Part shown: in pieces, positions 27,759 through 60,122 of the stretch
Layout of the letters: each line of letters opens with the position of its first letter
Numbering within the stretch: the first letter of the stretch is position 1
Assembly (NCBI GenBank): GCA_041649255.1
Contig: JBAZNK010000004.1
Span: 28,647 to 92,646 of the forward strand
From: a bacterium
GTDB taxonomy: Bacteria; Hydrothermota; UBA3073; JACQXS01; JAQTXJ01
DNA: 64,000 bases
Direction: 5' to 3'
Position numbers and translations under genes: made by a program
Notes under the pieces: model-generated
What the model saw: the letters and a program-made list of their open reading frames with translations, nothing else
Told to the model about the DNA's origin: nothing
Database searches by the model: none

Positions 27759-28805
27759 CTATAATTTTATACACTTCTCAAGAACTTTTTCCGGCAAAAT
27801 AATTGACATACAATCCTTTTCGCATTTACTTTTATAGCACCCCAAACAATCCAATTCAGGTTCAATAATCTCTCCAAGCCCATATAATTCAAACTCATTT
27901 CTGTTGAAAATATTATTCAGAAGTATTATTTTCTTTTCAAATCCTATCGCTATATGTAAAGCCATAGTGACCTGTGTAACCACAACTTCGCACACATTTA
28001 CGACCCAAAGAAAATCCTTTAAACTGAAAGTCCCCCAGTATTCTGCTCCGCTTTTTGTTTTTATCCTTTTGTTTTTTTCGTCTTCCTGCGGTCCTCCCAA
28101 AAGAAGCGGAATAAAACCGGCGCTTTTTAATTTTTTAGCTAATGTTACCCAGTTTTCTTCGCTCCAGTTACGAGTTTCCCATCTCCCCCCGCATCCCGTA
28201 TTTAATCCTACTATGCGACCTTTTAATTTTGGGAGTTCCGGGGACTTACCTTTAAGTTCAAGAATATATTTTTCGCCTGAGAAATTAAATCCGCAAACTT
28301 CAAATATTTCCTCAACATAATGTTTTTTATTAGCTTTTTCTATATCATCCCATAATCCCGTTAAAAACTTATGTTCGGCATCTTTATCAATAGAACTGCA
28401 TTTGCCGTCTTTAAGAATAAAACCCTTTTTTATATCCGCAGAAATAAGCCTTGCAAGGGAACAAGTTTCCTTGTCTTTATCAAGATTGTAAAGTATGTCA
28501 AACTTATCTCCTAAAAGAGATACGACGTTTGAAAGCTCAAACTTCATAGGATAATCTACGATAGAAGGCAAAAGTTCCGGGAATATGCTTAACCATGTAA
28601 TCTCGCTATCGGGATATATCTCTTTGAGTCTTCTTAAAATTGGAGTTGTTCTTATAACGTCTCCTGCTGCGCCAAATTTTATTATTAGAATTCTTTTTGA
28701 CACCTCTTTATAATATTCACAATTGTCACAATGAACTCCCTTTTCTTTATGGAATTTACAAGGAATATCCCCTTTGTAAAACCTGCAATTAGTTTTAATT
28801 TTCAT
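27759..28805 (-). CDS. GT9 family glycosyltransferase (heptosyltransferase-like) with N-terminal Cys4 zinc-ribbon-like motif
   Basis: 348 aa; GT9 motif (ILIIKFGAAGDVIRTTPILRRL); N-terminal C-x7-C-x9-C-x2-C; overlaps the start of the upstream radical-SAM gene by 11 nt (translational coupling). Confidence 0.6.
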   Translation of the reverse strand: MKIKTNCRFYKGDIPCKFHKEKGVHCDNCEYYKEVSKRILIIKFGAAGDVIRTTPILRRLKEIYPDSEITWLSIFPELLPSIVDYPMKFELSNVVSLLGDKFDILYNLDKDKETCSLARLISADIKKGFILKDGKCSSIDKDAEHKFLTGLWDDIEKANKKHYVEEIFEVCGFNFSGEKYILELKGKSPELPKLKGRIVGLNTGCGGRWETRNWSEENWVTLAKKLKSAGFIPLLLGGPQEDEKNKRIKTKSGAEYWGTFSLKDFLWVVNVCEVVVTQVTMALHIAIGFEKKIILLNNIFNRNEFELYGLGEIIEPELDCLGCYKSKCEKDCMSIILPEKVLEKCIKL

Positions 28806-31800
28806 TGCCCCTTCCTTTTAGAAATGCTTCTCCTATTTGTGGCATAATGGTGCATAAAAGCCAGCAATGGCATTTCCCGCTGTTCATAAAATCCCGAATC
28901 TTAGTTGCTTTGGACGATTCCCATAATTTATCAAAAGGAGTATCTTTAACATTCCCAACTAACATCTGTTTATTCATCGGACAGAAAAAAAGGTCTCCTT
29001 GAGGATTAAACATAGCAAAATGCACTCCTGCCATACACTTCTTAAAAACTCTGGTAGGATGTAATTGATATTCAACTAAATTCGACCAGAAATATAATTG
29101 CGCAAGTAACCCTATATCGCTTGTAATTGATGTCGTTCTTTTTGCATCAATCATTTTTTTAAGTATTATTTCGATAATGCCTTGAACTTCCAATAACTTT
29201 TCCTTGCTCCATTTCGGGTCCGGCGGTAATACAAATTGAGCCGAAAATATACAATTAAGCCTATTTACAAATTCATAAACAGGCAATAGTTCCGTATAAT
29301 TGTCAGGAGTAACTGTAAAATTAATATTGTAATGAATGTCTTCAAACTCTTTCTGCACTTGAGTTATTGTTCGGACTAAATTATTAAATGCATCCTTTCT
29401 GCCCCTGATTTCATTATGCTTTTCAAATAAGCCGTCAAGAGAAGACCCCAGCCAGATAGATTTTGGCTCATACTTCCTTTTTACCTCCATAAGTTTTTTT
29501 ATCGTTAAATTCGCATCCATACTATTTGTCAAAATTCCAATACTCGCTTCCGGCAACTGTTCTGTTAAGCAACCGCATATTTCTACAAAATCTTTTCTCA
29601 AAAAAGGTTCTCCACCGGAAAGGACTATAGATTTAACATTTTTAAGATATTTGGAATCTCCGATAAACTTCTGAATTTCTTCAAGTGTTAATTGTTTTTT
29701 CTCTAACTCCGGGAATTTGCTGTATTTATCCCACAAATCACAAAAAGTGCATTTACAATTACACCTGTAAGTTAATTCCATATGTAGTTCTTCAGGCCCC
29801 TTCCCTAAATTTATTGCATTATCTATTTTTGGAATTCCTTTTTGAATAGTGTGGTTAATGCTCTCTAAAAGATACTTAAATGGATATCCCTTAATATTAT
29901 GCTCTCTGTACAAGTCCTCTATTTCATAATACAGATTTATTAGAGAAGGGTCTATCTCTTGCGCTTTACGCAGATATGCAATTGCTTCATCTATCTTGCC
30001 TTGCATTTTGCATAAGTATCCCATATTAACGTATGCATCAATATAATCCGGTTTAATTGAAATGGATTTTTTGAAACAACTTTCCCCGTCCTGAAGCTTG
30101 CCAACAGAAACCATTGACACCCCTGTAATATCCCAGATTTCATAATCATCCGGCACGCAAGATAACAATTTTACAAATAGTAAACAGGCTTCTTGTAATT
30201 GTTGGTTAGAAGCCCATTTTTTCCCGAGTTCCAAAACCCATTTTTTTAAATCCGGGTCAATGCTTAATGCTTTTTGAAGCAACTCTTTAGGAAAATCTAA
30301 CTTCCCGGTATTAAAATATAATTTACATAGAATAGAATAAACTTTTGTTGACTCAGGATGCGCTGATAAAACACTTTCCAATTTTAAAATCGCATTCTTG
30401 TAATCTCCTGAATTTATAAAGTTTTCTGCTTCATTTATTTCTTTATCAACTCCCCTTACAGACGGAACTTTTTCGTTAGCTTTTGTATCTTTCCCCGTTC
30501 CCCATTCTTTAATTTCCTTTAAACATTCTTCGTATAAATCCTGTAATCCGATTTTTTGATAGCAGAACGCAAGGTTTTGAATAATAGAGATATTGCGGGA
30601 TTCTTTTTCTATGGAGTTAATAAAATATGGAATTGCTTTTTCAGGTTCTCCTGTATTAAAATAATAATTACCTATGAGATTATTTCTGTTCAGTAATCTT
30701 GGAGCAGGGTAAACACTTGGAACTTTCAAATCCCACGCAAGTTGGCAGAACTCTTCAAATCTTCTTAAACGCACTAAATAAGTATTAGAGCCATCTTTTG
30801 ATTCCCAATACTCTCCTCCTTTACTAAAATCAATGTCAAATTCTTCCTGATGGTCATAAGCATAAGTCCCGGGAGCAAAGCTGCAAAATGCAGGGCAGGG
30901 ATTGACAGTCCCAATATAATCTTTATTTCTTCTTAAAAACTTAAGCGTCTCTCTGAAATCTTCTTCTGTTTCCCCAGGCAAACCAAACATAAAATTAACG
31001 GCACAACTAAGGCCGGCTTTACAACCATCTCTTACTATTTTCTCAGGGTTAATATCTTTTGCCAACAATTTTCCTGCCTTTAACATTAAAGGAACTGAAG
31101 CAGTTTCCATTCCGTATCCTAATGCTACACACCCTGATTGTTTTAATTTAAGTAAAAGTTCATAAGTCATATCCTTTCTCATAATTGCCTGACCGCTCCA
31201 CTGGATTTTCAGCCCATCTTTTACTATGAAATCAGCAAGTTTTTCTAACTCCTTAACACTTCCATTGACCAAACTATCCTGAAAATCAAAGAAACTTCCT
31301 TTTGGATGTTTTTTCAATTGATACAACATTTCCTTATACATATTTTCTGCCGTTCTGAATCGAAATCTTTTCCAGAAAGGACGTTCATTGCAATACACAC
31401 ATTTATTACAGCATCCCCTGCTTGAGATAATTGGAATTTTAAATGGTTCTTTATAATCATTGAAATCGTAATCCGAAAAATCCGGCATTGGCAAAGAATT
31501 AACGTCTTTAATTAACTCTCTATCCCCGCAATCAACCACTTCGCCATTTTTACATATAAGCGTCCCTGCACAAAAATCTACTTTCGGATTTTTAACAATT
31601 TCTTCTAAAGTAACTTCTCCTTCCCCCTGGACAATAAAGTCTACGTTTTCATCTTTAATAATTGCTTTTCCTGCTAAGTCCCTGCTTACATGGGGACCAC
31701 CAAATACAATAATTATTTTGCTGTTTTTTTTCTTAATTTGTTTTGCCAGGTAAAGACTAATATATAAAGAAGAAAAATATATTGAAAATCCAACAACTTT

Positions 31801-33768
31801 TGCTCCACTGCCTAATATTATATCTACATAGTCATTTAAATAATTCTTATGATATTCTATAAACTCATCTACCACGGATGGATTATTCCAGAATGCAAGT
31901 GATTTTTCTAACTCCCAGACATCAGTGTATTTACCTCTTCTCAATTTATAGAGTTCTATATTCAAATCTAAGGAAAGAACTTCATACCCCTGATGTCTCA
32001 CATAAGCAGTCAAACTGGCTAATGCCAGAGGCGGAGTGCTTATTCCCCATGCCGGAGCTTGAACAAGCACAACATCTGCATTCGTAATTTTATTTTTAAT
32101 GTTTGCGTCCGATAAAGACGGAAAATGTTTTTTCATAATATTTTTTACCTCTATTTTCTGGTTATTATCTTTAATTTTACCGCTTTTTTCAAGTTTAAGG
32201 TATTTATCTATAATTTTATTTTTTTTGTTAAGTTCCGCATACAAGGCAGAAAGTTTATCAAATATTTCAGTATTAAACGTTTCTTTAACTAAAGACCTTT
32301 CATAATATTTAGTCGCTTCTTGATATTTCTTTTCATAAAGATAATAATCGCCTATGAGTTTATTCTCGTTAGGTAATTGTTTGAAACCCAATACTATACC
32401 TAATGACTCTAAATGATTAGTAAATTTTTGAAATCTATTTAAACGAATTACATAATTATTTTTTCCGTCTTTACTTTTCCAGTAAACAGCATTATCGTTT
32501 ACTTCTATATTAAATTCTTCCGGGTGAGAATATGCATAACAGCCGGTTGTAAACCCACAAAATCCGGCGCTTGGATTAACTGAGCAATGAGGTCGTAGAT
32601 AGTCAGCATTTCTTGTGAAGAAATCCAAATCGGCTTGAAAATCTTCTTCCGTATCTCCCGGGAAACCGAACATCCAATTCAATCCTATACCTAATTGCGC
32701 TTTATAGCAATCTTTGATAAACTTATCAAAATCGGCATTTTTACACAATAGTTTCCCCATTTTAAGTAATTGTCCTTTTGAAGAATGTTCCATTCCAAAA
32801 CAAAGATGAAAACAGCCAGAATTATGAATTTTCTGCAATAATTCAAATGTCATTTCCGGACGAACGGTCGCTTGCCCCATCCATTCAATACCAAGATTGC
32901 TTTCTATCGCAAGGTCACAAAATTTTTCAAGGGCTTTAACATTACCATTTACCAAAGAATCAGTAAATTCAATTTTTTTTATGTTATATTTAGAAACCTG
33001 GTATTTTACTTCTTCAAAAATTTTCTCCCCTGTTCTGCTTCTAAATTTATACCAAAACACTTTTTCATCGCAATAAATACAATTATTAGGACACCCTCTT
33101 GAAGTTGTAGCCGGTAACATTACAGGCTCTTTATATAATTCAAAAGGAAAATCAGAAAAATCGGCATAAGGCAAAGAATTAAGGTCTGCGATTAATGGTC
33201 TGTCTCCACCGTAATAAATTTTTCCATTTCTGGAAAATAACACGCCTTTTATTGGGTCAAATTCTTCTCCTTTTTCAATAGCTTTGACCAATTCATATAA
33301 AGTTTCTTCCCCTTCCCCGTGAACTACGAAATCTACTTCATTTCTTAAAACAAATTCTTCTCCTTTTATGCCTCTTGCCGCATGGGGACCACCAAAAACG
33401 ATAATCCTGCTCGGGTCTTTCTTTTTAATTTCGGACGCCAATACCAAACTCATTTGTTCCGTAGACCATAGTATTGTAAAACCGATTATTTTAGAGCCGG
33501 AATTTAAAATCTCATCTACGTATCTATCTATTAATTTCTTATGTGCCTTTACAAAATTGCTTACCGCTTGAATATCGCCCCAGAATCCTTCGTTTAATGT
33601 CCACGCATTTGCATATTTAGTATCCTTGAATTCATTATACAATTCAATATTAATGTCCCTCTTGTAAACTTCATAACCGTAAGATTTTAAATAAGCAGAT
33701 AAACAAGCTATAGCAAAAGGAGGGCTTTGTCTTCCCCATGCAGGTGTCTGGATTAATGCTATTTTCAT
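28795..33768 (-). CDS. Giant tri-radical-SAM protein: two tandem B12-binding (class B) radical-SAM domains, TPR linkers, and a C-terminal SPASM/twitch-type radical-SAM domain
   Basis: 1657 aa. Domain 1 (KIALIQTPAWG...TSRGCPNNCIYCDE: CxxxCxxC). Domain 2 (VVLVQAPAWGISTPP...SSRGCCNKCVYCNE). TPR region ~aa 1000-1290. Domain 3 (MELTYRCNCKCTFCD plus C-terminal Cys-rich CMAGVHFAMFNPQGDLFFCP...GKCHCWLLC). Confidence 0.8.
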   Translation of the reverse strand: MKIALIQTPAWGRQSPPFAIACLSAYLKSYGYEVYKRDINIELYNEFKDTKYANAWTLNEGFWGDIQAVSNFVKAHKKLIDRYVDEILNSGSKIIGFTILWSTEQMSLVLASEIKKKDPSRIIVFGGPHAARGIKGEEFVLRNEVDFVVHGEGEETLYELVKAIEKGEEFDPIKGVLFSRNGKIYYGGDRPLIADLNSLPYADFSDFPFELYKEPVMLPATTSRGCPNNCIYCDEKVFWYKFRSRTGEKIFEEVKYQVSKYNIKKIEFTDSLVNGNVKALEKFCDLAIESNLGIEWMGQATVRPEMTFELLQKIHNSGCFHLCFGMEHSSKGQLLKMGKLLCKNADFDKFIKDCYKAQLGIGLNWMFGFPGDTEEDFQADLDFFTRNADYLRPHCSVNPSAGFCGFTTGCYAYSHPEEFNIEVNDNAVYWKSKDGKNNYVIRLNRFQKFTNHLESLGIVLGFKQLPNENKLIGDYYLYEKKYQEATKYYERSLVKETFNTEIFDKLSALYAELNKKNKIIDKYLKLEKSGKIKDNNQKIEVKNIMKKHFPSLSDANIKNKITNADVVLVQAPAWGISTPPLALASLTAYVRHQGYEVLSLDLNIELYKLRRGKYTDVWELEKSLAFWNNPSVVDEFIEYHKNYLNDYVDIILGSGAKVVGFSIYFSSLYISLYLAKQIKKKNSKIIIVFGGPHVSRDLAGKAIIKDENVDFIVQGEGEVTLEEIVKNPKVDFCAGTLICKNGEVVDCGDRELIKDVNSLPMPDFSDYDFNDYKEPFKIPIISSRGCCNKCVYCNERPFWKRFRFRTAENMYKEMLYQLKKHPKGSFFDFQDSLVNGSVKELEKLADFIVKDGLKIQWSGQAIMRKDMTYELLLKLKQSGCVALGYGMETASVPLMLKAGKLLAKDINPEKIVRDGCKAGLSCAVNFMFGLPGETEEDFRETLKFLRRNKDYIGTVNPCPAFCSFAPGTYAYDHQEEFDIDFSKGGEYWESKDGSNTYLVRLRRFEEFCQLAWDLKVPSVYPAPRLLNRNNLIGNYYFNTGEPEKAIPYFINSIEKESRNISIIQNLAFCYQKIGLQDLYEECLKEIKEWGTGKDTKANEKVPSVRGVDKEINEAENFINSGDYKNAILKLESVLSAHPESTKVYSILCKLYFNTGKLDFPKELLQKALSIDPDLKKWVLELGKKWASNQQLQEACLLFVKLLSCVPDDYEIWDITGVSMVSVGKLQDGESCFKKSISIKPDYIDAYVNMGYLCKMQGKIDEAIAYLRKAQEIDPSLINLYYEIEDLYREHNIKGYPFKYLLESINHTIQKGIPKIDNAINLGKGPEELHMELTYRCNCKCTFCDLWDKYSKFPELEKKQLTLEEIQKFIGDSKYLKNVKSIVLSGGEPFLRKDFVEICGCLTEQLPEASIGILTNSMDANLTIKKLMEVKRKYEPKSIWLGSSLDGLFEKHNEIRGRKDAFNNLVRTITQVQKEFEDIHYNINFTVTPDNYTELLPVYEFVNRLNCIFSAQFVLPPDPKWSKEKLLEVQGIIEIILKKMIDAKRTTSITSDIGLLAQLYFWSNLVEYQLHPTRVFKKCMAGVHFAMFNPQGDLFFCPMNKQMLVGNVKDTPFDKLWESSKATKIRDFMNSGKCHCWLLCTIMPQIGEAFLKGRGNEN

Positions 33769-42263: not shown

Positions 42264-43520
42264 ATGAATAATAATTATAAAGTTCTTGTTTATGATTCCT
42301 CTTACGAAGTATGCAACACGCTAAAGAATATTCTAAAAGATTTTAATTTCGAAATAGTAGAGTGTACAAATGTAAAAGATTTTTTTAAGTTTCTTGAAAG
42401 TATATTTTTTAATATCGCCTTTTTTGACACAGAAAACAAAGATAAAATCGAGATAGATATTTTTCAGAAATTTAAGATGGCTATGAATCCTGATATAAAT
42501 ATTATTTTAACATCTACAGTTCCCAAAGTTGAAATTGCAATTCGCGGCATTAAGTTCGGAATTTTAGATTATTTAACAAAACCTCTTAATAAGAAAGAAG
42601 TGTTGGAAAGCGTAAATAAAGTAGTGAACAAAGAACAGCCTTTTGAGAGAACCGGGTTGGGTTTATTAATAGGAGTTTCTCCAAAAATGCAACAACTTTA
42701 TTCTGAAATCTTAAATGTCGCTCCAACAAACTCCACAGTATGCATTCAAGGAGAAAACGGGACCGGCAAAGAATTGATAGCCCAAACCATTCATAATCTT
42801 TCCCTTCGTAAAGACGCGAACTTTATACCTGTAAATTGCAGTGCCATTCCTGAAAGCCTGCTCGAGACAGAATTATTTGGTCACGTAAAAGGCGCATATT
42901 CCGGAGCATCTCGCGATAATCCTGGCATTTTCAGGGCAGCCGAAAAAGGAACCATATTTCTTGATGAAATAGCAGAAATACCACACAGCATTCAGATAAA
43001 ACTCCTAAGGGTTCTTGAAGAAAAAGAAGTCAGATCTATTGGAAGCGCCCAGAATTATAAAATTGATTGTCGCATTATTACAGCTACAAACAAAGATCTT
43101 GAAAGAGCCGTTTTACAAGGAAAAATAAGAGAAGATTTTTTCCATAGACTGTTTGTCGTTTCTATAATAGTCCCTCCGCTTAGAGAAAGAAGAGAAGACA
43201 TTCCCCTTCTAATTGAACACTTCTTAATTTTAACCAAGGGACAAAATAAAAAACAGATTTCGGACGAAGTTCTTGAAGCTTTATGCTCTTATGATTGGCC
43301 CGGAAACGTCAGAGAATTAGAAAACGTGATAGAAAGCGCTTGCGTTACAAGCAGCAGTAATAGTTTAATCAAACTAACCGATATTCCCTTAAAAATAAGA
43401 GGAAGCAAAGGATTCATGCCAAATCGAAAATCTGTTTTATGGGATGACACACAAAAAAGCCTCATTCAAAGGACACTTGCCCAAACAGGCACAACAAACT
43501 CAAAACTGCAAAACTACTAG
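42264..43520 (+). CDS. Sigma-54-dependent response regulator (REC + AAA+ sigma-54 activator; NtrC/FlgR/FlrC-like); the C-terminal Fis-type HTH is in another frame (43490-43606)
   Basis: REC residues (D10, D55, T/S ~82, K ~104); Walker A GENGTGKEL; GAFTGA-type motif (GHVKGAYSGA); ESELFGH-like; the ORF stops just before the HTH NKLKTAKLLGIDRKTLYRKLKRYKI, which is readable in the frame offset by 2. Confidence 0.8.
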   Translation: MNNNYKVLVYDSSYEVCNTLKNILKDFNFEIVECTNVKDFFKFLESIFFNIAFFDTENKDKIEIDIFQKFKMAMNPDINIILTSTVPKVEIAIRGIKFGILDYLTKPLNKKEVLESVNKVVNKEQPFERTGLGLLIGVSPKMQQLYSEILNVAPTNSTVCIQGENGTGKELIAQTIHNLSLRKDANFIPVNCSAIPESLLETELFGHVKGAYSGASRDNPGIFRAAEKGTIFLDEIAEIPHSIQIKLLRVLEEKEVRSIGSAQNYKIDCRIITATNKDLERAVLQGKIREDFFHRLFVVSIIVPPLRERREDIPLLIEHFLILTKGQNKKQISDEVLEALCSYDWPGNVRELENVIESACVTSSSNSLIKLTDIPLKIRGSKGFMPNRKSVLWDDTQKSLIQRTLAQTGTTNSKLQNY

Positions 43521-43792
43521 GCATAGATCGCAAAACATTATACAGAAAACTCAAAAGATATAAAATAGTATCTCCATCACCCCAGACACAAGACACAACA
43601 CAATAAACCAGCACAAAAACAAAACAACCCAATCAAAATAAACTACACATTAAACACACTCAAAATACCCCAACACAAACAAAATCAACCACAATAGTGT
43701 AGCATAAAACTACACCCCAAAACCCCTAACCAACAACACAAAACAACACAGCGTCAATTCGCTACACCACACTGTCGCTCAATGCCTCAGTG

Positions 43793-44005
43793 TGGCAAAT
43801 TGACATATAGGAACAAAATGCCACATTGTAACATAAGGCAAAAAGCCACACCTCGGGATTATTTATCATCACAGTAAAATAACTCAGGGGTATATTGCTA
43901 CACTAGACTGTGGCTAAATAGAACATTGGGGCAAATTGACATATGAGAACAAAAGCCACACCGCAAAGTAAGGCAAAAAGCCACACCTCGAGACTGTTTA
44001 TTATC
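43793..44005. repeat. Two ~75-bp direct repeats (period ~138 bp) with recurring GCCACA/TGTGGC motifs inside a CA-only intergenic region; candidate enhancer (UAS) elements
   Basis: GGCAAATTGACATAT[A/G]GGAACAAAA..GCCACA...TAAGGCAAAAAGCCACACCTCG[G/A]GA.T.TTTAT at 43795-43870 and 43933-44008; long-range inverted repeat GGGGCAAATTGACA (43935) / TGTCAATTTGCCCC (44052). Confidence 0.6.
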
Positions 44006-44150
44006 CTATTAATACAACTTAGGGGTAAATCGCCACATATAGTTGTGTCAATTTGCCCCTGTGGTTATTTAGGACATACTGATTTGTATGATGATGTAAC
44101 TATTTGTTGGGTGTGGGTTTTAGGGTATTAGTGTGAATAATTTTGTATAT

Positions 44151-44165
44151 TGGCACATTTGTTGC
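44151..44165 (+). promoter_or_regulatory. Sigma-54 promoter (TGGCAC-N5-TTGC) upstream of the second activator gene
   Basis: TGGCACatttgTTGCTATTATAATAT; exact -24/-12 consensus; lies inside the track ORF start (44143), so the real start is ATG 44182. Confidence 0.55.
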
Positions 44166-44181
44166 TATTATAATATCTACT

Positions 44182-45231
44182 ATGGCAAAATTAACGGAAT
44201 TATTTTCTGAATTTAACGTTGCTGCAGAACGATTAGAAGGGGCTTACAAGGTTTTACAGGAGAAGGTTGAGCGTGCAAACCTATCCTACGGTTTTGGACC
44301 TCTTGTTGGAAGAACTGAAGGGATGAAGGAAATATACGAGATAATTCGTGCAGTTGCAAAGAGTAGAGCTTCGGTTTTGGTATATGGGGAGTCCGGGACC
44401 GGAAAAGAACTTGTATCAAGAGCAATACACTACGAGAGTAATTGCAAAGATAAACCTTTTATTTCCATAAATTGTGCGGCTATTTCCGAGGGGTTGTTAG
44501 AAAGCGAGCTTTTTGGTCATGAGAAAGGAGCTTTTACCGGAGCATTAGAAAAAAGAAAAGGGAAATTTGAACTTGCCAATGGAGGGACATTACTTCTTGA
44601 TGAAATTTCAGAGATGGGACTTATGCTCCAGGCGAAATTACTTCGTGTATTACAGGAATTTAGGTTTTTTAGAGTAGGCGGTTCCGAAGAAATAAAAGTA
44701 GATGTGAGGATAATTGCCACAACAAACCTTAATCCAAAAGAAGCTATTGAAAAACAAAAACTCAGAGAAGACCTTTTTTACAGGTTAAACGTAGTGAGCG
44801 TTAATATTCCACCATTGAGAGAAAGAAAAGAGGATATTCCTGTTCTTGCGGCTTATTTTTTAAGGAAATATTCCACTTTTTACAATAAACAGGTAAATTC
44901 CATCTCAACAGATGCATTAAAAATTCTTTTAAATTATAACTGGCCTGGAAATGTAAGAGAACTTGAAAATGTAATAGAGAGGGCAGTGATTCTTAATTCT
45001 TCTCCCTCGGTTCTCACTTCACATCTCAATCTTTCCAATAACTCAAATGATGTGCAATTAAACGGACTTATTGGATTATCTTTAGATGAAATAGAAAAGA
45101 AAGTTATTATTGAAACATTAAAAAAGAATAATGGGAACCGGACAAATACTGCTAAAATGTTAAAAGTAAGTATCCGGACAATAAGAGAAAAAATCAGGCA
45201 ATATAAAAAAGATGGGGAAATAATTGACTAA
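44182..45231 (+). CDS. Sigma-54-dependent transcriptional activator lacking any receiver/sensor domain (PspF-like: ~40-aa N-terminal helix + AAA+ + Fis HTH)
   Basis: GESGTGKELVSRAIH Walker A; GAFTGA (EKGAFTGAL); ESELFGH; intact C-terminal HTH (NRTNTAKMLKVSIRTIREKIRQY). Confidence 0.8.
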   Translation: MAKLTELFSEFNVAAERLEGAYKVLQEKVERANLSYGFGPLVGRTEGMKEIYEIIRAVAKSRASVLVYGESGTGKELVSRAIHYESNCKDKPFISINCAAISEGLLESELFGHEKGAFTGALEKRKGKFELANGGTLLLDEISEMGLMLQAKLLRVLQEFRFFRVGGSEEIKVDVRIIATTNLNPKEAIEKQKLREDLFYRLNVVSVNIPPLRERKEDIPVLAAYFLRKYSTFYNKQVNSISTDALKILLNYNWPGNVRELENVIERAVILNSSPSVLTSHLNLSNNSNDVQLNGLIGLSLDEIEKKVIIETLKKNNGNRTNTAKMLKVSIRTIREKIRQYKKDGEIID

Positions 45232-45348: not shown

Positions 45349-45759
45349 ATGAATAGTATTTTTAACGATATGGGTTTTGGCGCTACAAAAAAAGGGTTGG
45401 ATGTTAGCGCTTTGAGAAACAAGGTAATTGCCCAGAATATTTCAAATGTCTCAACGCCGGGATATTCTTCGTCAAAAGTAAAGTTTGAAGAGCTTCTTGA
45501 CGAAAAACTCGGGTTCAAATTATCCGGGACACGCACAAATCAAAGTCATCTACCCGTTGGCAGGGCAAATAACGAAATTAACAACGTAAATCCCTTAGTT
45601 GAAACATCAACTGATCCGATTCCGGCTGGGAAAGTCAACAACATAGAGATAGACAAAGAAATAGTTTCGCTTGCAAAAAATTCTTTAGATTGGGATACGT
45701 ATGTTAATTTGATTTCTTTCAAATATAGGCTTTTAACGCTAAGTATAAGAAGACAATAA
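45349..45759 (+). CDS. flgB: Flagellar basal-body rod protein FlgB
   Basis: 136 aa; N-terminal rod motif (LDVSALRNKVIAQNISNVSTPGY). Confidence 0.85.
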   Translation: MNSIFNDMGFGATKKGLDVSALRNKVIAQNISNVSTPGYSSSKVKFEELLDEKLGFKLSGTRTNQSHLPVGRANNEINNVNPLVETSTDPIPAGKVNNIEIDKEIVSLAKNSLDWDTYVNLISFKYRLLTLSIRRQ

Positions 45760-51673: not shown

Positions 51674-52465
51674 ATGGCTGACGAAGAACAAAAACAAGAG
51701 TTAACTAACTCTGAATCCACTGCTCCGGATAACAAGGCAGGGAAAAAAACAAAGCCTAAAAAAGGTGGGTTTTCGATTAAATTCCCTAAAAAAGCTTCGG
51801 GCGGTAAAAAAAATAAATCCAGAGACGAAAGAGATGATAGAGACAAGGAAAAGAAAACAGATGGGAAAGATGCTCCAAAAGAAGGGACCGGGAAAAAGCC
51901 CCCCAAAAAAATGTTATTATTAATAATTATAGGTGCCGCTGTTATTATTATTGCAGCAGCAGGATTTTTTGTCTTAAAACCGAAGCTCGCATCAAAAAAA
52001 AACATAGCAGAACAAGCAGATTCTTCAAAAGTTGCTTTGGCAGATACATTCAAAACCGATTCTTTACTTACAGATACATCTTCTTACAGTCTTTCTAATG
52101 CCGACACCAACAAATTAAATGCCGACTCTATTCTTGCTCAAGATGAAACAACTCAAAATTCTAATTCTTCACAACTTGATGTCGCTATAAAACAAGCGGA
52201 AGACAAGACAATACTCGAAAAACAATTATTAGAAACAAAACGTGTAAATGACAGCATCGTCAAAGAATCCGAACGTAAACTTACCAAGACTCTGGAATCT
52301 ATGGAACCTGAGGGCATGAGCGCCATTATGGATAGTCTTGATGATAATACCGTTATTGATTTATTATCAAAAATGAAACCTAAGAATGTTTCCGAGATAT
52401 TAAGCGTTATGAATCCGGGCAGGGCGGCTAAACTTATAAGAGACATTAACTCTAGAAACAAATGA
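51674..52465 (+). CDS. YlxF/MotE-family flagellar protein (Lys-rich N-terminus, one TM, C-terminal MgtE_N-like domain)
   Basis: 263 aa; C-terminus SAIMDSLDDNTVIDLLSKMKPKNVSEILSVMNPGRAAKLI resembles the MgtE N domain; same position as ylxF in the B. subtilis fla/che operon. Confidence 0.55.
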   Translation: MADEEQKQELTNSESTAPDNKAGKKTKPKKGGFSIKFPKKASGGKKNKSRDERDDRDKEKKTDGKDAPKEGTGKKPPKKMLLLIIIGAAVIIIAAAGFFVLKPKLASKKNIAEQADSSKVALADTFKTDSLLTDTSSYSLSNADTNKLNADSILAQDETTQNSNSSQLDVAIKQAEDKTILEKQLLETKRVNDSIVKESERKLTKTLESMEPEGMSAIMDSLDDNTVIDLLSKMKPKNVSEILSVMNPGRAAKLIRDINSRNK

Positions 52466-54957
52466 ATAATAATACTAATATAATTTCTAAAAACTGTCTA
52501 CCTGTTTCAAAAGGGAAGACAAAAACTGCTTTACTTAAAAATACCCAATTTAACTCTCTTAATAATCTAAAAGGGGAAAAATATCAGGACAATAGAGCAA
52601 GTTTTAATGATGAACTATTTAAGGTCTTAACTGTTCCGGGTATGTCTTCCCTTAAAGAATCTTCGATGAAAATATCTACACCCAACAATACTACTTCTAA
52701 CCGGTTGAATTCAAATTCTTCTTCCACCTCATTAAACAATACGGCAACCCGTCTTACATCCTCAACTGCCAAGGAGACAGAAACTACGAGCACCGCCAAG
52801 AATATTTCTACCAAGTTAAATACAAATTCAAATTCTTCTTCCACCTCATTAAACAATACAACAACCCGTCTTACATCCTCAACTGCCAAGGAGACAGGAA
52901 CTACGAGCACCGCCAAGAATATTTCTACCAAGTTAAATACAAATTCAAATTCTTTTTCCACCTCATTAAACAATACAGCAACCCGTCTTACGTCCTCAAC
53001 TGTCAAGGAGACAGGAACTACGAGCACCGCCAAGAAAGAGACTACGACATTGGGGATTGATAAATCGCCAAGCATATCTATTCCGGAAGCCTTGAAGACA
53101 AATAAACCGGATTCCAGTTCTCTCCCTACCTACGTCAGGCAGGCAGGGAATAATAACCCTATCGCTACACCTATTAATCTTTCCGAAACAAACAAACAAA
53201 CAACTTCAGTATTTTTTAATAAAAATATAAAATTGACTGTCACAGCTGAACATCCTATATCATATGATAAAAACACCGCGAATCAAATTCAGTCACAGTC
53301 TAATTCTGACTTAGCAAGCAAAGTATCTGATAAGACAAACAAACAAACTGAACCAACAAGTAATAACACAATCCCGGGGCATCAAATTTCCGCTTCAAAA
53401 ATAATTACAACAAGTACTTCTATACCTACCGGATTAAAAGCAGGTTCAAATTCTTCCCCATCTTCATATTTAAATGACGCCTCTACCGCAAAAGCACCGG
53501 TTACTTCTAAAACACTTTTTCTTAAGGAATCTACGACAGTACATCAGAAAACAGACAAAAACATAACAACTAAACTTTTATCCTTAAATGACAAAGAAAC
53601 AGGGACTACGCCCACTACAAAGGTAGGGGCTACGACATTAGGAATTGATAAATCGCCGAGCATATCCATTTCGGAAGTCCTGAAGACAAATAAATCTGAT
53701 GCTATCAATACCCGCCAAGACAGGATAAGGAATTTATCATCTACGATAAATTCTTCCCGCGTTAAGTTTGATAATTTATCAAGTTCCACGCCTATTAATA
53801 TTTCCGACTTAAACAAGCAAATATCTACAGTATTTTCCAATAAAAATACTGCAAGTCAAATTCAGCCAGAATCTCGTTCTGACTTAGCAAATAAGGTATC
53901 TGACAAACCAAAAGAGAAAACAAAACCAATAAACAGTAAAGCAATTTCGGGTTCTGTTACAAGCGAACTTTCCGTTCAACCGCGTTCAGAGGAAATACCT
54001 GTCATTCGCCTCAAGCAAACCAACAGTACGGTATCTTCTTCGTCCATTTTTCCACCAAAGGCGGATGAGTCCATTCTTCCAACAATACTCCAAACAAAAG
54101 TCGAACAAGTAGCTCAAGGGAGGCTCAATATAAGACACTCTGCTCCGATAGAGAGAACTGATACCGGAACGGATAAAAAAATTAATACTGACAATAACTT
54201 ATCTAAAAATATATTTATTAAAGAGCAGGTTATTCCATTATCTACGCCAAGACAAGATGTTTCATATTCAAAAACCTATTCAAATATGTTCAATACGAAT
54301 GACAGGAATACGGATAACCTTAGCGTTCAAAAGCAATCACAGAAAACCGTTTCCAATGTATCTTTTAATACTGCCGGGTCAGAACCATTATCACCTAACA
54401 ACGACGTAATTAATATTCTCCAGTCAAAGGAAAACGCATCTAAGACTGACATTACGCCTAAAAACACTTCTTTTACAGGGTCTTCTACCACTCAAACAAT
54501 CTTTCAATCTAGTTTTCCCTTCATTTCAAATCATATTAAAACCTCTTTAACGACAACTAAAACAGGAGATTTGATAACAACTACTTTCAATCTCAAACCG
54601 GAGCATTTAGGCAAATTAAAAATAAGTTTAATTTCGCATAATAATTTTACTCAAGACAAAACTTCTATATCAGAGCTCAAACTTGTCGTTGATAACATTG
54701 CGACCAAACAATTATTAGAATCTAATATTTCACAACTTAAATCTGCTCTTCTTTCAGAAGGGGTTATGATTCAAGAATTTAATATTTCTCTTAATCAAGA
54801 TGCGTCTGATAATGCACATCAATCTTTGCCAGGGTACAATCATTCAAAATTATCTACACTATCTTCCATCAAAGACGAGTCTAATTTTGATAGGAATGTA
54901 ATTCCATCGGGTATTAACTTAGCTTATGAAAAAGGAAAAATTGATTTATTTATTTAA
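52462..54957 (+). CDS. fliK: Flagellar hook-length control protein FliK (unusually long, 831 aa, repeat-rich N-terminal ruler region)
   Basis: C-terminal Flg_hook domain (TTFNLKPEHLGKLKISLI...LKLVVDNIATKQLLESNISQLKSALLSEGVMIQEFNIS); Ser/Thr/Asn-rich N-terminal region with tandem repeats. Confidence 0.7.
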   Translation: MNNNTNIISKNCLPVSKGKTKTALLKNTQFNSLNNLKGEKYQDNRASFNDELFKVLTVPGMSSLKESSMKISTPNNTTSNRLNSNSSSTSLNNTATRLTSSTAKETETTSTAKNISTKLNTNSNSSSTSLNNTTTRLTSSTAKETGTTSTAKNISTKLNTNSNSFSTSLNNTATRLTSSTVKETGTTSTAKKETTTLGIDKSPSISIPEALKTNKPDSSSLPTYVRQAGNNNPIATPINLSETNKQTTSVFFNKNIKLTVTAEHPISYDKNTANQIQSQSNSDLASKVSDKTNKQTEPTSNNTIPGHQISASKIITTSTSIPTGLKAGSNSSPSSYLNDASTAKAPVTSKTLFLKESTTVHQKTDKNITTKLLSLNDKETGTTPTTKVGATTLGIDKSPSISISEVLKTNKSDAINTRQDRIRNLSSTINSSRVKFDNLSSSTPINISDLNKQISTVFSNKNTASQIQPESRSDLANKVSDKPKEKTKPINSKAISGSVTSELSVQPRSEEIPVIRLKQTNSTVSSSSIFPPKADESILPTILQTKVEQVAQGRLNIRHSAPIERTDTGTDKKINTDNNLSKNIFIKEQVIPLSTPRQDVSYSKTYSNMFNTNDRNTDNLSVQKQSQKTVSNVSFNTAGSEPLSPNNDVINILQSKENASKTDITPKNTSFTGSSTTQTIFQSSFPFISNHIKTSLTTTKTGDLITTTFNLKPEHLGKLKISLISHNNFTQDKTSISELKLVVDNIATKQLLESNISQLKSALLSEGVMIQEFNISLNQDASDNAHQSLPGYNHSKLSTLSSIKDESNFDRNVIPSGINLAYEKGKIDLFI
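52711..53040 (+). repeat. 2.8 tandem copies of a 117-bp (39-codon) in-frame repeat inside fliK
   Basis: The marker TCAAATTCTT recurs at 52711, 52828 and 52945; unit encodes NSNSSSTSLNNTATRLTSSTAKETETTSTAKNISTKLNT; a diverged larger-scale copy lies at ~53590-53900. Confidence 0.8.
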
Positions 54958-55009: not shown

Positions 55010-55669
55010 ATGATAACGAATATACAGAGCCTTAATTACACAACTACTAGCGCTACAGCATCTACTGCTTCTACTGACATTACAGGTAAAGATGAATTTT
55101 TAAAACTTCTTACAACTCAACTCAAATACCAGGATCCTACTGCTCCTATGGATAACAAAGATTTTCTTGCACAGCTTGCACAGTTTTCGAGTTTAGAGCA
55201 ACTTCTTAACGTCAACGGAAATCTTCAGGCAAATTTTCTTGCTCTCCAATCTCTAAACAATTCTTCCGCGACTGATTTTATCGGAAAAACCGTTAAGGCC
55301 ACAGGTAATTCTGTTTCTCTTGTTGAAAACGCATCGGTTCCTATTAGTTATTCTCTTGCCGGGGCTGCTGAAGCAACAGTAAGTATTTACGATTCCAACG
55401 GAAATTTAGTCCGCACTTTAGATTCTGAATGGCAAAGTTCGGGTGACAATCAAATGTTATGGGATGGAAAAGATTCTTCGGGCAATGCTTTGGCGCCGGG
55501 GAAATATACTTTTTCGGTTTCAGCAAAGGATACTGATGATAATTCCGTAACAGCTACAGGATACCTCAGCGGTAAAATAACGGGAGTAAAGTTCGTCAAC
55601 GGTAATCCTGTACTTATGATGGGTGACACAGAAATATCTTTTAGTGATATTTACGAGATAAATGGTTAA
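55010..55669 (+). CDS. flgD: Flagellar hook capping (scaffolding) protein FlgD
   Basis: 219 aa; DEFLKLLTTQLKYQDPTAPMDNKDFLAQLAQFSSLEQL signature; AGGAGG RBS. Confidence 0.85.
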   Translation: MITNIQSLNYTTTSATASTASTDITGKDEFLKLLTTQLKYQDPTAPMDNKDFLAQLAQFSSLEQLLNVNGNLQANFLALQSLNNSSATDFIGKTVKATGNSVSLVENASVPISYSLAGAAEATVSIYDSNGNLVRTLDSEWQSSGDNQMLWDGKDSSGNALAPGKYTFSVSAKDTDDNSVTATGYLSGKITGVKFVNGNPVLMMGDTEISFSDIYEING

Positions 55670-55684
55670 TAAGGAGGTGATGAA

Positions 55685-56098
55685 ATGGTAGATAAATTAA
55701 CGGTAACTAATTCTGTTAATACAAAGAGACCAATCACACCCGTATCAGGTGGAATATCTGATAGTAAATCAGGGCAGATACAAGGGGCAGGTTCAACCAG
55801 TTTTGCCGAACTGTTAAGAGAAAAAGGGATTCAACTTTCAAATCATGCCAACACGAGAATACAGTCCAGAAATATTCCAACCAGCACAGAGAATGTTTCG
55901 AGACTGCAGTCTGCAATAGACAAAGCCAGTGCCAAGGGTGCAAAAGAATGCCTTGTTCTTATGGACAACACTGCATATTTGGTCGCTCTAAAACATTTGC
56001 CTGACGGGAAAGCAAGTCAGACAGTAGTTACTGTTATAAGTAAAGATGAGCTTCAACAGCGCATTTTTACTTCTATAGATTCGGTTGTAATTGCTTGA
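55685..56098 (+). CDS. Flagellar operon protein (TIGR02530-like ORF conserved between flgD and flgE)
   Basis: 137 aa; the call is positional and by size, in the known flgD-X-flgE arrangement of Firmicutes and spirochaetes. Confidence 0.45.
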   Translation: MVDKLTVTNSVNTKRPITPVSGGISDSKSGQIQGAGSTSFAELLREKGIQLSNHANTRIQSRNIPTSTENVSRLQSAIDKASAKGAKECLVLMDNTAYLVALKHLPDGKASQTVVTVISKDELQQRIFTSIDSVVIA

Positions 56099-56217
56099 GG
56101 CCGGACCTTGCCATAGTGGCAAGGAAGCCTCTTTATGTCGCTGAATGACTGATGCGGCATACTTTCCGCCCGAAAGGCGGAAAGTCTCGCCAAGGCGGGA
56201 CAAGGAGGAGGGGGAAA

Positions 56218-58263
56218 ATGATAGGATCATTATATACAGGAGCGAGTGGGCTTAGAGCTCATCTCCTGAGACTTGACGTAGTTAGTAACAATCTTGCAAA
56301 TGTTAACACAATTGGTTTTAAGGCAGGCAGAACGACTTTTGAAGAAGCTTTATCACGTTTCATATCTTCCGCTCGCAGGGCTGATGACGATATGGGAGGT
56401 ATAAACCCGGCTCAAATCGGGACAGGTGTTAATGTTTCTTCTATTGATAATATCTTTACACAGGGGGGATTATCCTCTACGGGTGTAACTACTGACCTTG
56501 CTATACAGGGAAATGGATTTTTTACGGTAAAGGATAATTCCGGCGCAAATTATTATACAAGAGCCGGTATGTTCAGACTTGATTCTTTAGGACATTTAGT
56601 AACCCCGGATGGTCTCAGACTTCAGGGTAAAATGGCAGACAGCGAAGGGACTATCGCATCCGGAACAAGCATAGAAGACCTGATACTTCCACTCGGTGTA
56701 AAAGTTCCTGCAAAAGCAACGACAGAAGCGAAATTTACTTGCAACCTTAATATGGCAGAGAATCCATTAGAGACAATTCTAAATTCACAAAGAATGTTGG
56801 GAGATGCTATATCCACAGACGCATTAAGTGGACTCACTGACGGTTCAGGTTCAAGAATGACTTTAGACGCCAATGATAACGTAACATTCACAGTCGGGGC
56901 ATCATCGACCATTTTATCTTATGACATAAGCAGTGACGGAGCAGCTTCAGACAACAAGTTTCATACATTAGCCGGGCTTGCGGCAGAACTACAAAGCTTT
57001 GTGACAGGGTTAGCGGGACACGCTGCAGATACCGTAACAGTGGTTGCTGGGACAGGAGCCGGGGCACAAACCCAGATAAGATGGGCCAATAGCGCCGGAG
57101 CAACAGCTACGTTTGATTCTAATAATGCAGTATTAAAGGATATGTTTTCTTCATATAGCGGAACAGTATTAGCCGGGAATATAGATTCGGATAATTTCTT
57201 ACATAACGCAACCGGTGCGGACAGACTTGAGGACTTATATTCGTCATCAGGGACAAATTTAGGGTTAACAGCCGGTGACACTTTGATATTTTCAGGAACA
57301 AATGGAACTAGCGCAGTAAATACGACACATGCGATGATTGCAGCAGATACCTTAGATACTTTATGCGGTTGGTTAGAGACAGATTTTTCAATAGCAACCG
57401 GGGAAGCAAAAATGGATTCTGACGGCAAACTTGTAATTGAAGGAGATAAAGGGACAGCCAATGCATTAACAGCATCCATCACAGAAGCAGGTAATACGAT
57501 ATTTAACGGTTCAATGGGACTCGCGGAATCGCAAGCAGCGACAGACATAACACATTCAACATCATTCTCGGTTTATGATTCACTTGGCGTAACTCACACG
57601 GTAACAGTAAAGTTCCAGAAAGATGAAATAACATCAAATTTATGGCATTGGACTACAACTCTTGATAGAGGAACAATATTAAACGGAGGAAGCGGGGATG
57701 TAAGTTTCAATAGCGATGGCAGTTTAGCATCTTTTGGATATACAGGAGGCGTAAGTGCGTTTTCGTTCGATCCTGAAGATGGTGCTACAAATCCGGTAAA
57801 TATTGATTTTAATGCAGGTACAATAAATGCATTCGACGGGATAACTCAGTTATCAGGGGCAACTACAACAATTATGTCTCACCAGAACGGTTATGCAATG
57901 GGAAGATTGTCAACCATAGCAGTAAATGGTAACGGAGAAATTACAGGTAGTTTCACAAATGGTATAACGAGAACATTAGCTGAGGTATCGCTTGCAACAT
58001 TCACTAATCCTGCCGGATTAAAGAAAGCGGGTAATTCGTTATGGCAGGAGGATGTAAACTCAGGGACAGCAGTTCTTGGAAAAGCAGGAACAACTTTACC
58101 TGATACAAGCATATCCGCAGGATATCTTGAGCAATCCAATGTAGACATGGCAAATGAATTTATAGAAATGATTATCGCACAGAGGGGATTCCAAGCAAAT
58201 TCAAAAACCATAGCATTGGGAGACCAAATGCTGGCAGAATTAGCGGCATTAAAACGAATATAG
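56218..58263 (+). CDS. flgE: Flagellar hook protein FlgE (large, 682 aa)
   Basis: Start MIGSLYTGASGLRAH... after AGGAGGAGGGGG RBS (the track ORF start 56152 reads through an upstream hairpin region); conserved C-terminus (GYLEQSNVDMANEFIEMIIAQRGFQANSKTI). Confidence 0.85.
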   Translation: MIGSLYTGASGLRAHLLRLDVVSNNLANVNTIGFKAGRTTFEEALSRFISSARRADDDMGGINPAQIGTGVNVSSIDNIFTQGGLSSTGVTTDLAIQGNGFFTVKDNSGANYYTRAGMFRLDSLGHLVTPDGLRLQGKMADSEGTIASGTSIEDLILPLGVKVPAKATTEAKFTCNLNMAENPLETILNSQRMLGDAISTDALSGLTDGSGSRMTLDANDNVTFTVGASSTILSYDISSDGAASDNKFHTLAGLAAELQSFVTGLAGHAADTVTVVAGTGAGAQTQIRWANSAGATATFDSNNAVLKDMFSSYSGTVLAGNIDSDNFLHNATGADRLEDLYSSSGTNLGLTAGDTLIFSGTNGTSAVNTTHAMIAADTLDTLCGWLETDFSIATGEAKMDSDGKLVIEGDKGTANALTASITEAGNTIFNGSMGLAESQAATDITHSTSFSVYDSLGVTHTVTVKFQKDEITSNLWHWTTTLDRGTILNGGSGDVSFNSDGSLASFGYTGGVSAFSFDPEDGATNPVNIDFNAGTINAFDGITQLSGATTTIMSHQNGYAMGRLSTIAVNGNGEITGSFTNGITRTLAEVSLATFTNPAGLKKAGNSLWQEDVNSGTAVLGKAGTTLPDTSISAGYLEQSNVDMANEFIEMIIAQRGFQANSKTIALGDQMLAELAALKRI

Positions 58264-58353: not shown

Positions 58354-59139
58354 ATGGATATAACAACGATTGCAGGCGTAGCGATAGGGTTTTACCTATT
58401 ATTCACTGCTATATTGCAGGGAGGATCGGCCAAAATTTTTATTGATATTCCTGCAATAATGATTACCGGAGGCGGTACACTTGCAGCCGTGCTTATTAAT
58501 TACCAATTTACGGATGTTATCAGGATACTCAAAGTTACTGCAAAAGCTTTTATACATAAACCTATTGCACCCGTAAAAACAATTAATCTTTTATTAGAGA
58601 TGAGTAAAAAAGCTCGTAGAGACGGGTTTATTGCACTTGAAGAAGATTTAAAAAAAGTTGAAGATAAATTTTTAAGGGTTGCCCTCAGGTGTGTAGTTGA
58701 CGGCAGCCCGCTTGACAGGACTCAGAAACTATTAGAAACAGAAGTAGAGAATTTAGAGTTAAGACATAGCAAAGGGATAGGAATATTTAAAGCCGGGGGG
58801 AAATTTGCGCCGGCTTTTGGGTTACTTGGAACGTTAATCGGGCTGGTTCAAATTGGACGAGTCGTAAACGAGCCATCTGCAATTGTTTCAAGCATAGCAG
58901 TAGCATTTGTGTCGACTTTTTACGGAGTAATACTTTCGAATTTAATTTTTCTCCCCATAGCAGGTAAATTAGATGGATTAACGCAAGAGGAGACATTAGA
59001 GAAGAGGCTTATAATAGAAGGAATTCTATCAATACAGTCCGGAGAACCGACACTTGTAATAGAAGACCAATTAATAGCATTTTTGCCTCCGGAAGAAAGA
59101 GAAAAAAGAATAAAAATAAAAATGGAAGAGGAAGAGTAA
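58354..59139 (+). CDS. motA: Flagellar motor stator protein MotA (no motB follows)
   Basis: 261 aa; MotA/TolQ/ExbB channel motifs (AFGLLGTLIGLVQIG; ILSNLIFLPIAGKL). Confidence 0.8.
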   Translation: MDITTIAGVAIGFYLLFTAILQGGSAKIFIDIPAIMITGGGTLAAVLINYQFTDVIRILKVTAKAFIHKPIAPVKTINLLLEMSKKARRDGFIALEEDLKKVEDKFLRVALRCVVDGSPLDRTQKLLETEVENLELRHSKGIGIFKAGGKFAPAFGLLGTLIGLVQIGRVVNEPSAIVSSIAVAFVSTFYGVILSNLIFLPIAGKLDGLTQEETLEKRLIIEGILSIQSGEPTLVIEDQLIAFLPPEEREKRIKIKMEEEE

Positions 59140-59159: not shown

Positions 59160-60122
59160 ATGGAAGAAAGAATATTGTCTCAGGAAGAAATTTCCACTTT
59201 GTTAAAAACCGTTCCTAAAAGTAATGAAGATACTCCTTCTAAAGAAAAAAAGATAGAAGAATACGACATCAAGAGATATGTAGGAATTACAAGGGAACAT
59301 TTCCCGATATTTAAAGAAATTAATGAATATTTCGACTTTCTTTTTGAACAATCGGTTGCCACGAGAACGGGAAACTTCATCAATATGATAACTTCTGAGC
59401 CGGAAATCAGCACTCTTGGTGAATTCATTTCTTCGGCATCCAATCCCACTTATATCATTATGTTCAAACTTGACCCTGCGGTTGGCGATGTGTATATGGA
59501 TATTTCGCCTTCGTTTGTACACTCGCTTGTAGATATGGAATTTGGAGGAACCGGCAGAATCAATAAAAATCCACCTGACATCACCATAATTGAACGTGCA
59601 GCTATGCCTAAAATTGCCAGAGCATTACTTGGTGAACTTGAAAAAGCATGGGGAAAATATGTTGCAGTATCTTCAAAAATAGTATCCCAGCAAACCAATC
59701 CATTAACTATAGCTCCACCGGAATCTGTAGTTCCAATTCTCAGTATTTCTTTTACCTTAACAATTGACGATATTCCTATGTCTCTACGAATTGCTTATTC
59801 TTCGGAAATCGCAAGGGCTCTTGCTGCCGAGGTTATAACTCACGAGCGTGTAACGAGAAAAACAGCCAATGCTGAGCTCCAGGAAAAAATCAAGCAGATA
59901 TTAATGCATGCAAGAGTAAATGTTTATGCTGAGCTTGGACGTTCAGGCATTTTTGTTTCTGATTTATTAGAATTGAAAGCAGGTGATATAATCCCTTTAA
60001 ACCTTCATACAGACAGTGAAATAATTGTTTACGTGGAAGATAAAAAGAAGTGGTTTGCCAAAGCAGGCGTTTATAAAATGAGAATGGCATCTAAAATTAC
60101 GCGTCCATACAAAAGGAGGTAA
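59160..60122 (+). CDS. fliM: Flagellar motor switch protein FliM
   Basis: 320 aa; N-terminal LSQEEISTLL CheY-P-binding-like motif, FliM middle domain, C-terminal FliN-like domain. Confidence 0.8.
   Translation: MEERILSQEEISTLLKTVPKSNEDTPSKEKKIEEYDIKRYVGITREHFPIFKEINEYFDFLFEQSVATRTGNFINMITSEPEISTLGEFISSASNPTYIIMFKLDPAVGDVYMDISPSFVHSLVDMEFGGTGRINKNPPDITIIERAAMPKIARALLGELEKAWGKYVAVSSKIVSQQTNPLTIAPPESVVPILSISFTLTIDDIPMSLRIAYSSEIARALAAEVITHERVTRKTANAELQEKIKQILMHARVNVYAELGRSGIFVSDLLELKAGDIIPLNLHTDSEIIVYVEDKKKWFAKAGVYKMRMASKITRPYKRR

Follow-up and report, generated by a model that had tools for sequence, protein, structure and literature searches.

We examined a 64,000-nt stretch of contig JBAZNK010000004.1 (GenBank assembly GCA_041649255.1, positions 28,647 to 92,646 of the forward strand), referred to below as the window, in which a flagellar operon carries a long fliK gene whose spacer holds a tandem array of 117-bp units that differs in unit number between related genomes. 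FliK would be the secreted protein that ends hook growth and shifts flagellar type III export from hook-type to filament-type substrates. The features of the gene, in window coordinates and with the compared sequences (P0002, L001, L004 and L007) described further below, are as follows.

52462..54957, + strand: fliK coding sequence, 831 residues, from the open reading frame list and the Pfam Flg_hook match, with the N-terminus MNNNTNII kept in two relatives
52462..52686, + strand: conserved N-terminal region, residues 1-75, 72% identical without gaps to the related FliK P0002 and kept in the related contig L004
52708..53058, + strand: tandem array of three 117-bp (39-residue) units, c1 at 52708-52824, c2 at 52825-52941 and c3 at 52942-53058
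52782..52837, + strand: 56-nt perfect direct repeat, first copy, bounding the one-unit deletion of the near-identical contig L001
52899..52954, + strand: 56-nt perfect direct repeat, second copy, identical to 52782-52837
52584..53075, - strand: antisense open reading frame of 163 residues inside the array, an open frame in the list
53005..53466, + strand: module copy 1 of an older segmental duplication, residues 182-335, from protein local alignment and DNA families D2, D4 and D5
53593..54039, + strand: module copy 2 of the same duplication, residues 378-526, which aligns with the single module of P0002
53791, + strand: single-nucleotide polymorphism (SNP), C (Pro) in the window and T (Ser) in L001 and L007, the sole substitution in 21.4 kb
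54577..54804, + strand: C-terminal Flg_hook (T3S4-type) domain, residues 706-781, from Pfam and a profile match to PDB 2RRL

Tandem Repeats Finder, the check proposed in an earlier note on this DNA, recovered a single array, spanning 52708-53036, in which a unit of 117 nt is repeated 2.8 times; the match rate was 96% and the score 616, and the alignment was free of indels. The in-frame period and copy number given in that note were thereby recovered, with its coordinates (52711-53040) 3-4 nt off, but its description of the repeats as perfect was not, since the copies are 96-97% identical. Copy c2 is 97% identical to c1, from which it differs at 3 of 117 positions, and c3, 84% identical over its full length, follows the other two for 95 nt before diverging in its last 22 nt; the longest perfect tract in the array is 56 nt. 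Private substitutions are present in every copy (two in c1, one in c2 and three in c3 ahead of its diverged tail), indicating that the three-copy state is old enough to have reached ~2% divergence. The possibility that c2 is a chimera of c1 and c3 is excluded by the private substitution of c2, and the variant pattern is not that of a single-crossover mosaic. Each unit is in frame and encodes 39 residues of the form NISTKLNTNSNSSSTSLNNTxTRLTSSTxKETxTTSTAK, and the 64-kb window contains three occurrences of a 35-nt core of the unit, all of them inside fliK, where chance alone would give none. The fliK repeats are real and non-random, and near-identical in place of perfect. A scan of the locus for promoters and terminators was uninformative in this AT-rich DNA.

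The antisense open reading frame was considered as a gene and rejected: it has no Pfam match and no counterpart in L002, a relative of ~87% identity, and its translation repeats with the array and is one unit shorter in L001. It is best regarded, from its sequence, as a frame held open by the codon composition of the repeats, and the suggestion made earlier that it is a repeat artefact is reasonable.

The identity of the gene as fliK was supported by domain, profile and synteny evidence. Pfam PF02120 (Flg_hook) matched residues 706-781 with 44.1 bits, against a gathering score of 29.8 (E = 1.8e-11), and this domain is presumed to be the switch domain acting on FlhB. A profile of the C-terminal family, built from the window FliK and 29 relatives and run against the PDB sequences, matched one entry, 2RRL, the C-terminal domain of Salmonella FliK (E = 2.7e-6). 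The family profile was needed because the full-length protein searched by phmmer against the same sequences gave nothing significant (the chance-level best match was 2k19, E = 0.2). No NCBIfam family, curated FliK models included, matched the protein at E <= 0.01, which reflects lineage divergence and does not contradict the Pfam result. Both absences fit a very isolated lineage, as the C-terminal 200 residues found 2 proteins below 1e-30 in a library of 1.8 billion representatives and FliI has no relative above 67% identity outside three sister metagenome-assembled genomes (MAGs). The fliK start codon (ATG) shares nucleotides with the stop codon that ends the MgtE_N-domain gene upstream, and the operon runs fliF-fliG-fliH-fliI-fliJ-MgtE_N-fliK-flgD-flg_new-flgE-motA-fliM-fliN-fliOPQR-flhB-flhA. 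The order from fliI to flgE, continuing to flhA, is the same in related contigs, with flhB downstream of fliK in L001. Judged by the Pfam match, the 2RRL match and this synteny, the gene at 52462-54957 is a genuine fliK, as had been claimed for it. An exact-protein look-up found the 831-residue product not to be on record, and two other window frames were likewise unrecorded, probably because the gene callers of the collection chose different start codons.

The protein has the layout expected of FliK, with conserved ends, a variable spacer and every repeat within the spacer. Residues 1-75 are presumed, as in the Salmonella FliK N-terminal region (FliK-N), to hold the export signal and the contact with the hook or hook cap. 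When compared by region with the 568-residue P0002, residues 76-341 of the window FliK are almost entirely absent from the relative, residues 342-560 are 52% identical and residues 671-831 are 83% identical. Ser, Thr and Asn make up 45% of the spacer at residues 76-560. An AlphaFold2 model placed secondary structure at residues 675-777 only and none at residues 1-674, and carries little weight given a three-sequence alignment and a mean predicted local distance difference test score (pLDDT) of 31.6. The spacer, some ~500 residues long and poorly conserved, is probably disordered, a view with which the model is at best compatible.

Larger internal duplications had also been claimed, and these were borne out. 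DNA families D2, D4 and D5 recur at a spacing of 573-621 nt with 74-82% identity, and residues 182-335 align with residues 378-526 at a BLOSUM62 local score of 270 with two indels. A BLASTP self-comparison returned the diagonal only, and a fixed-offset identity scan with local alignment of the two halves was used instead.

Comparison with related lineages places these expansions in order. The closest sister MAG supplies contig JAQTXJ010000020.1 (L004), whose flanking genes are 94.5% identical in nucleotides; the contig has a single unit, 79% identical to the window units, followed by the start of module 1, and then ends inside fliK. The portion retained (L004 6001-6468) stops at the contig end ~156 codons into the gene, just past the start of module 1; low coverage (cov 4.47 in the contig name) or the internal duplication may account for the break. 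P0002, with flanks ~87% identical in nucleotides, has about half a unit and a module matching copy 2 only, without module 1, and two independent assemblies agree on its 568-residue length, including a k=31 Logan contig that crosses the whole gene without a break. Against P0002, the window FliK shows 54% identity across 64% of its length, compared with 97-98% for FliI among the three MAGs; FliK evolves far faster than the neighbouring genes.

Unit number differs between these related genomes, being three in the window, two in L001, one in L004 and ~0.5 in P0002. The between-species differences are solid, and the near-clonal difference is seen in one MEGAHIT contig. Because L004 has a single unit, the tandem amplification post-dates the split from L004, and both expansions, the 39-residue array and the ~150-residue module, are on these comparisons specific to the window lineage. 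The spacer would first have grown by duplication of the ~150-residue module, the copies of which are now 74-82% identical at the DNA level, and later by tandem amplification of the 39-residue unit to three copies, now 96-97% identical. Three assemblies of the window organism were present in the collections, and scans of metagenome contigs with protein patterns from an alignment (A2) and with a degenerate pattern for FNLKPEHLGKLK returned no further copies of fliK.

The near-clonal difference was found through P0001, a 792-residue protein in the same 90% cluster as the window FliK and 39 residues shorter. It lies on ENA ERZ27247363, MEGAHIT contig k141_38217 of 198,386 bp (L001), which over 21.4 kb is identical to the window save for the C to T change at 53791 and a 117-nt loss. 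Deleting window positions 52782-52898 reproduces L001 exactly apart from the SNP, and the deletion is flanked by the 56-nt perfect direct repeat. Both differences fall within ~1 kb of each other inside fliK, the SNP lying in the spacer. Recombination or replication slippage across the 56-nt repeat of neighbouring units would remove or add one unit while keeping the frame, and the 117-nt loss is what either slippage or unequal recombination would be expected to leave; the same spot is ambiguous in a small-k assembly graph.

Logan contigs of run SRR8542065 allowed the three-copy structure to be evaluated independently. Two of these (L006 and L008) match the window at 100% identity for 14.1 kb and 4.8 kb, and in a third (L007) the only mismatch in 10.0 kb is T at 53791. 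At k=31 the Logan contigs break across the array, L008 ending at 52737 and L007 starting at 53007. In a simulated k=31 de Bruijn graph, the three-copy sequence gave unitigs ending at 52737 and starting at 53007, while the two-copy sequence gave no break. Since these breakpoints were reproduced only with c2, c2 is present in SRR8542065 and the three-copy structure of the window is independently confirmed; with the private substitution of c2 and the Logan break positions, the three copies are real. In the same simulation, a clonal three-copy sequence had no repeated k-mers at k >= 59 and looped at the 56-nt repeat at k=39. The c1-to-c3 junction of the k141 contig consequently needs k-mers that are missing from a three-copy genome. 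A two-copy allele thus probably exists, possibly beside the three-copy allele in the population carrying T at 53791. The copy-number change predicted in the earlier note is in this respect supported by L001, a single contig one unit short, but hypermutability on very short time scales is at odds with the private substitutions of the copies, and the note's idea of differences from cell to cell, taken as phase variation, finds no support in these comparisons.

The likely effect of such changes can be gauged from Salmonella, in which FliK variants of 363-785 residues kept hook length under tight control at values of 42-135 nm, each inserted residue adding 0.2 nm, and in which motility suffered with hooks both shorter and longer (PMC6126814). 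A preprint argues that FliK limits maximum hook length and is not a strict ruler, since shortened variants did not give proportional shortening (10.1101/2020.03.25.007062). By analogy with the Salmonella calibration, one 39-residue unit (39 x 0.2 nm) would correspond to ~8 nm of maximal hook length and the 263-residue excess over P0002 to ~53 nm of hook.

Taken together, these results make it probable, with considerable room for doubt, that this is a fliK whose spacer grew by module duplication and then by tandem amplification, that units are gained and lost across the 56-nt repeat, and that a two-copy allele is present in a near-identical genome. Several points weigh against this. The two-copy contig could come from simplification of the small-k graph by MEGAHIT, the comparison being at contig level only. 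The ENA and Logan contigs share T at 53791 and Logan has c2, so that, should both derive from a single run, the two-copy contig must be an error or a variant that co-exists with the three-copy form. The ~2% divergence among copies, with one to three private substitutions in each, argues against very frequent change. The host is an uncultured MAG, in which we infer even a functional flagellum. With respect to hook length, the value of 0.2 nm per residue comes from helical Salmonella inserts and a Ser/Thr/Asn-rich coil may scale differently, and the preprint cited above questions strict ruler behaviour for shortened FliK.

The strongest competing explanation, possible though in our view less credible than a true change in unit number, is that the copy-number difference is an assembly artefact, in which all genomes have a fixed number of units, MEGAHIT skipped a unit by way of the 56-nt repeat, and the repeats are merely a fixed feature of a fast-evolving spacer. 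This would account for the deletion ending exactly in the longest perfect repeat, where the k=39 graph loops, and it accords with the demonstrable presence of c2 in a T-allele read set (Logan, SRR8542065) and with there being only three assemblies of the organism. By our own arithmetic, the contig sizes also agree with a single genome having been assembled twice, at k=127 and at k=141 (198475 - 117 + 2 x 14, that is + 28, = 198386), a match that does not discriminate between the explanations. Against an artefact, the graph is unambiguous for clonal three copies at k >= 59 and the c1-to-c3 junction k-mers would be absent from such reads, unitig assemblers break at loops of this kind and do not skip them, and the SNP at 53791 means that at least two haplotypes of the region exist.

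It is also conceivable, if rather unlikely, that the variation is real but neutral, the spacer being a tolerant disordered linker and hook length being set mainly by FlgE supply, FliK secretion frequency and the like. This is consistent with the rapid divergence of the region (79% nucleotide identity for the L004 unit compared with 94.5% for its flanks, and 54% for the P0002 FliK compared with 97% for FliI), with the copy-private substitutions, which by our own count are non-synonymous and synonymous at ~4:2, as expected without constraint, and with the shortened FliK variants that lack proportionally shorter hooks (10.1101/2020.03.25.007062). Neutrality is harder to reconcile with Salmonella hooks, which lengthen linearly up to a 785-residue FliK with altered motility (PMC6126814), and with the indels found here, all of which keep the reading frame and both terminal domains. 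A contingency locus, with frequent reversible gain and loss of units giving hook-length heterogeneity in a population as bet-hedging, is very improbable even with the hint that c2 and a c2-less junction may co-exist in T-allele samples, given that the three units are ~2% diverged with private substitutions and a longest perfect tract of 56 nt, and that classical contingency loci consist of short-unit repeats, which change far faster than units of 117-bp size.

Given the length and repeat content of the window FliK, we asked how it compares with its relatives, which were collected with the C-terminal 200 residues. Among 116 relatives of at least 300 residues, the median length was 518 residues and the 95th percentile 813, and 4 were 831 residues or longer. 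The description of this FliK as unusually long therefore stands for its 831 residues, in the top ~4%, but in relative terms only, as those 4 of 116 are as long or longer. Internal repeats, scanned for by fixed-offset comparison with 18 or more identities required in 30 residues, were present in 18 of 117 other relatives, and were concentrated in the long proteins (6 of the 12 with at least 700 residues compared with 7 of 84 below 550 residues; Fisher p = 0.001). By our own reading of the positions, ~11 of the 18 have repeats confined to the spacer and ~6 have a duplicated Flg_hook domain, and one repeat-positive protein of 2154 residues (P0129) is probably not a FliK. With repeats in 18 of 117 relatives, and in half of those with at least 700 residues, repeat-driven lengthening is recurrent in FliK and not special to the window gene.

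Other long repeat-bearing relatives resemble the window FliK in having a single C-terminal Flg_hook domain after a spacer with tandem or segmental repeats, for example P0014 (830 residues, 134-residue period), P0009 (778 residues, 260-residue period), P0120 (645 residues, four 69-residue units) and P0076 (593 residues, 37-residue period). They differ from it in that their repeat sequences and periods are unrelated and their C-terminal domains are at most 40% identical. In P0107, P0012 and P0138, in contrast, the duplicated segment includes Flg_hook, which in the window FliK lies outside the duplications. Beyond spacer repeats, P0107, P0012, P0138, P0006, P0081 and P0019 apparently have two or three copies of the Flg_hook domain. 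On this survey, long FliK proteins would often have arisen by duplication within the spacer.

The genes flanking fliK are listed below.

51674..52465, + strand: upstream neighbour, 263 residues, which has an MgtE_N domain and resembles FlbB very weakly
55010..58263, + strand: downstream neighbours, flgD at 55010-55669, TIGR02530 flg_new at 55685-56098 and flgE at 56152-58263 (703 residues)

The upstream protein, whose gene separates fliJ from fliK, is rich in Lys, Asp and Glu in its N-terminal part and includes a hydrophobic segment; its MgtE_N match scored 26.4 bits against a threshold of 25.9, and its match to the spirochaete collar protein FlbB, at 19 compared with 110 bits, is far below threshold. 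FlgE is large, with 703 residues from the first ATG (called as 681-682 residues in L001 and L002) and a long insertion between D1 (Pfam, residues 117-190) and D2 (residues 460-581), so that a long hook protein adjoins a long FliK. In operons of this type, motB and fliL usually sit between motA and fliM, but here motA (58354-59139) directly precedes fliM (59160-60122) with neither gene between them, as it also does in L001 and L002. Two tandem sigma-54 activator genes (42264-45231), with a receiver domain in the first only, lie just upstream of the gene in the flgB position and suggest RpoN-dependent control of the operon. The latter gene, a 136-residue frame (45349-45759) in the usual place of flgB immediately ahead of flgC, gave nothing in Pfam at E <= 0.001. 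Between fliD (8279-10186) and the flagellar operon, an island of ~30 kb (11906-41752, - strand) encodes several GT2 and TPR fusions, methyltransferases, a 1375-residue protein with three glycosyltransferase domains (22923-27050) and a 1657-residue protein (28795-33768) that combines SPASM and TPR with three radical-SAM/B12-binding modules. The probable role of the island is glycan modification of flagellin or the flagellum, for which it is unusually large.

A literature search found no paper dedicated to natural variation of tandem repeats in FliK, and one for the accession numbers returned nothing; PMC3234257 lists only a poly-A tract 5' of the H. bizzozeronii fliK. If the one-unit difference described here is real, it would be a natural flagellar counterpart of the engineered Salmonella FliK length series and of the variation in YscP, the Yersinia needle ruler, and simple recombination among repeats would be enough to adjust hook length in natural populations by a few nanometres at a time. 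A more far-reaching proposal, which we regard as unlikely, is that the array is a naturally segregating ruler-length polymorphism, that two- or three-unit cells of a near-clonal lineage would differ in maximal hook length and show heritable swimming diversity, and that repeat expansion of the spacer is a general route of FliK and hook-length evolution. The practical value of the window locus is limited, as its host is an uncultured MAG, and the survey of relatives could be extended to ask systematically how FliK length, repeat content and hook length compare from taxon to taxon.

The closest flagellar reference, FliK of Salmonella enterica, shares with the window FliK a C-terminal Flg_hook/T3S4 domain, a conserved N-terminus and, probably, a flexible region between the two, and both genes neighbour flgD and flgE within a flagellar operon. 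At 831 residues, the window protein is twice as long as the 405-residue Salmonella FliK (10.1101/2020.03.25.007062). Its middle consists of Ser/Thr/Asn-rich low-complexity repeats, whereas Salmonella FliK-N has helical propensity, and the similarity is confined to the C-terminal domain.

The closest parallel for the repeats is YscP. According to PMC3469391, which cites Wagner et al. 2009, strains differ in their number of in-frame YscP repeats (of 14, 25 and 46 residues), the protein ranges over 452-538 residues, and its length is reported to be linearly related to that of the needle. YscP is a ruler-type protein with a T3S4 domain, as the window FliK probably is, and has in-frame repeats that differ in number, as those of the window FliK may do between near-identical genomes. 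It differs in belonging to an injectisome and not to a flagellum, and its repeat region has no detectable sequence relation to that of the window protein. Both the strain variation of YscP and its effect have been shown experimentally, whereas the window FliK offers one contig-level difference known from sequence alone. With repeats common in FliK spacers and a published precedent in YscP, the window gene is a further case of in-frame repeats in a protein of this type.

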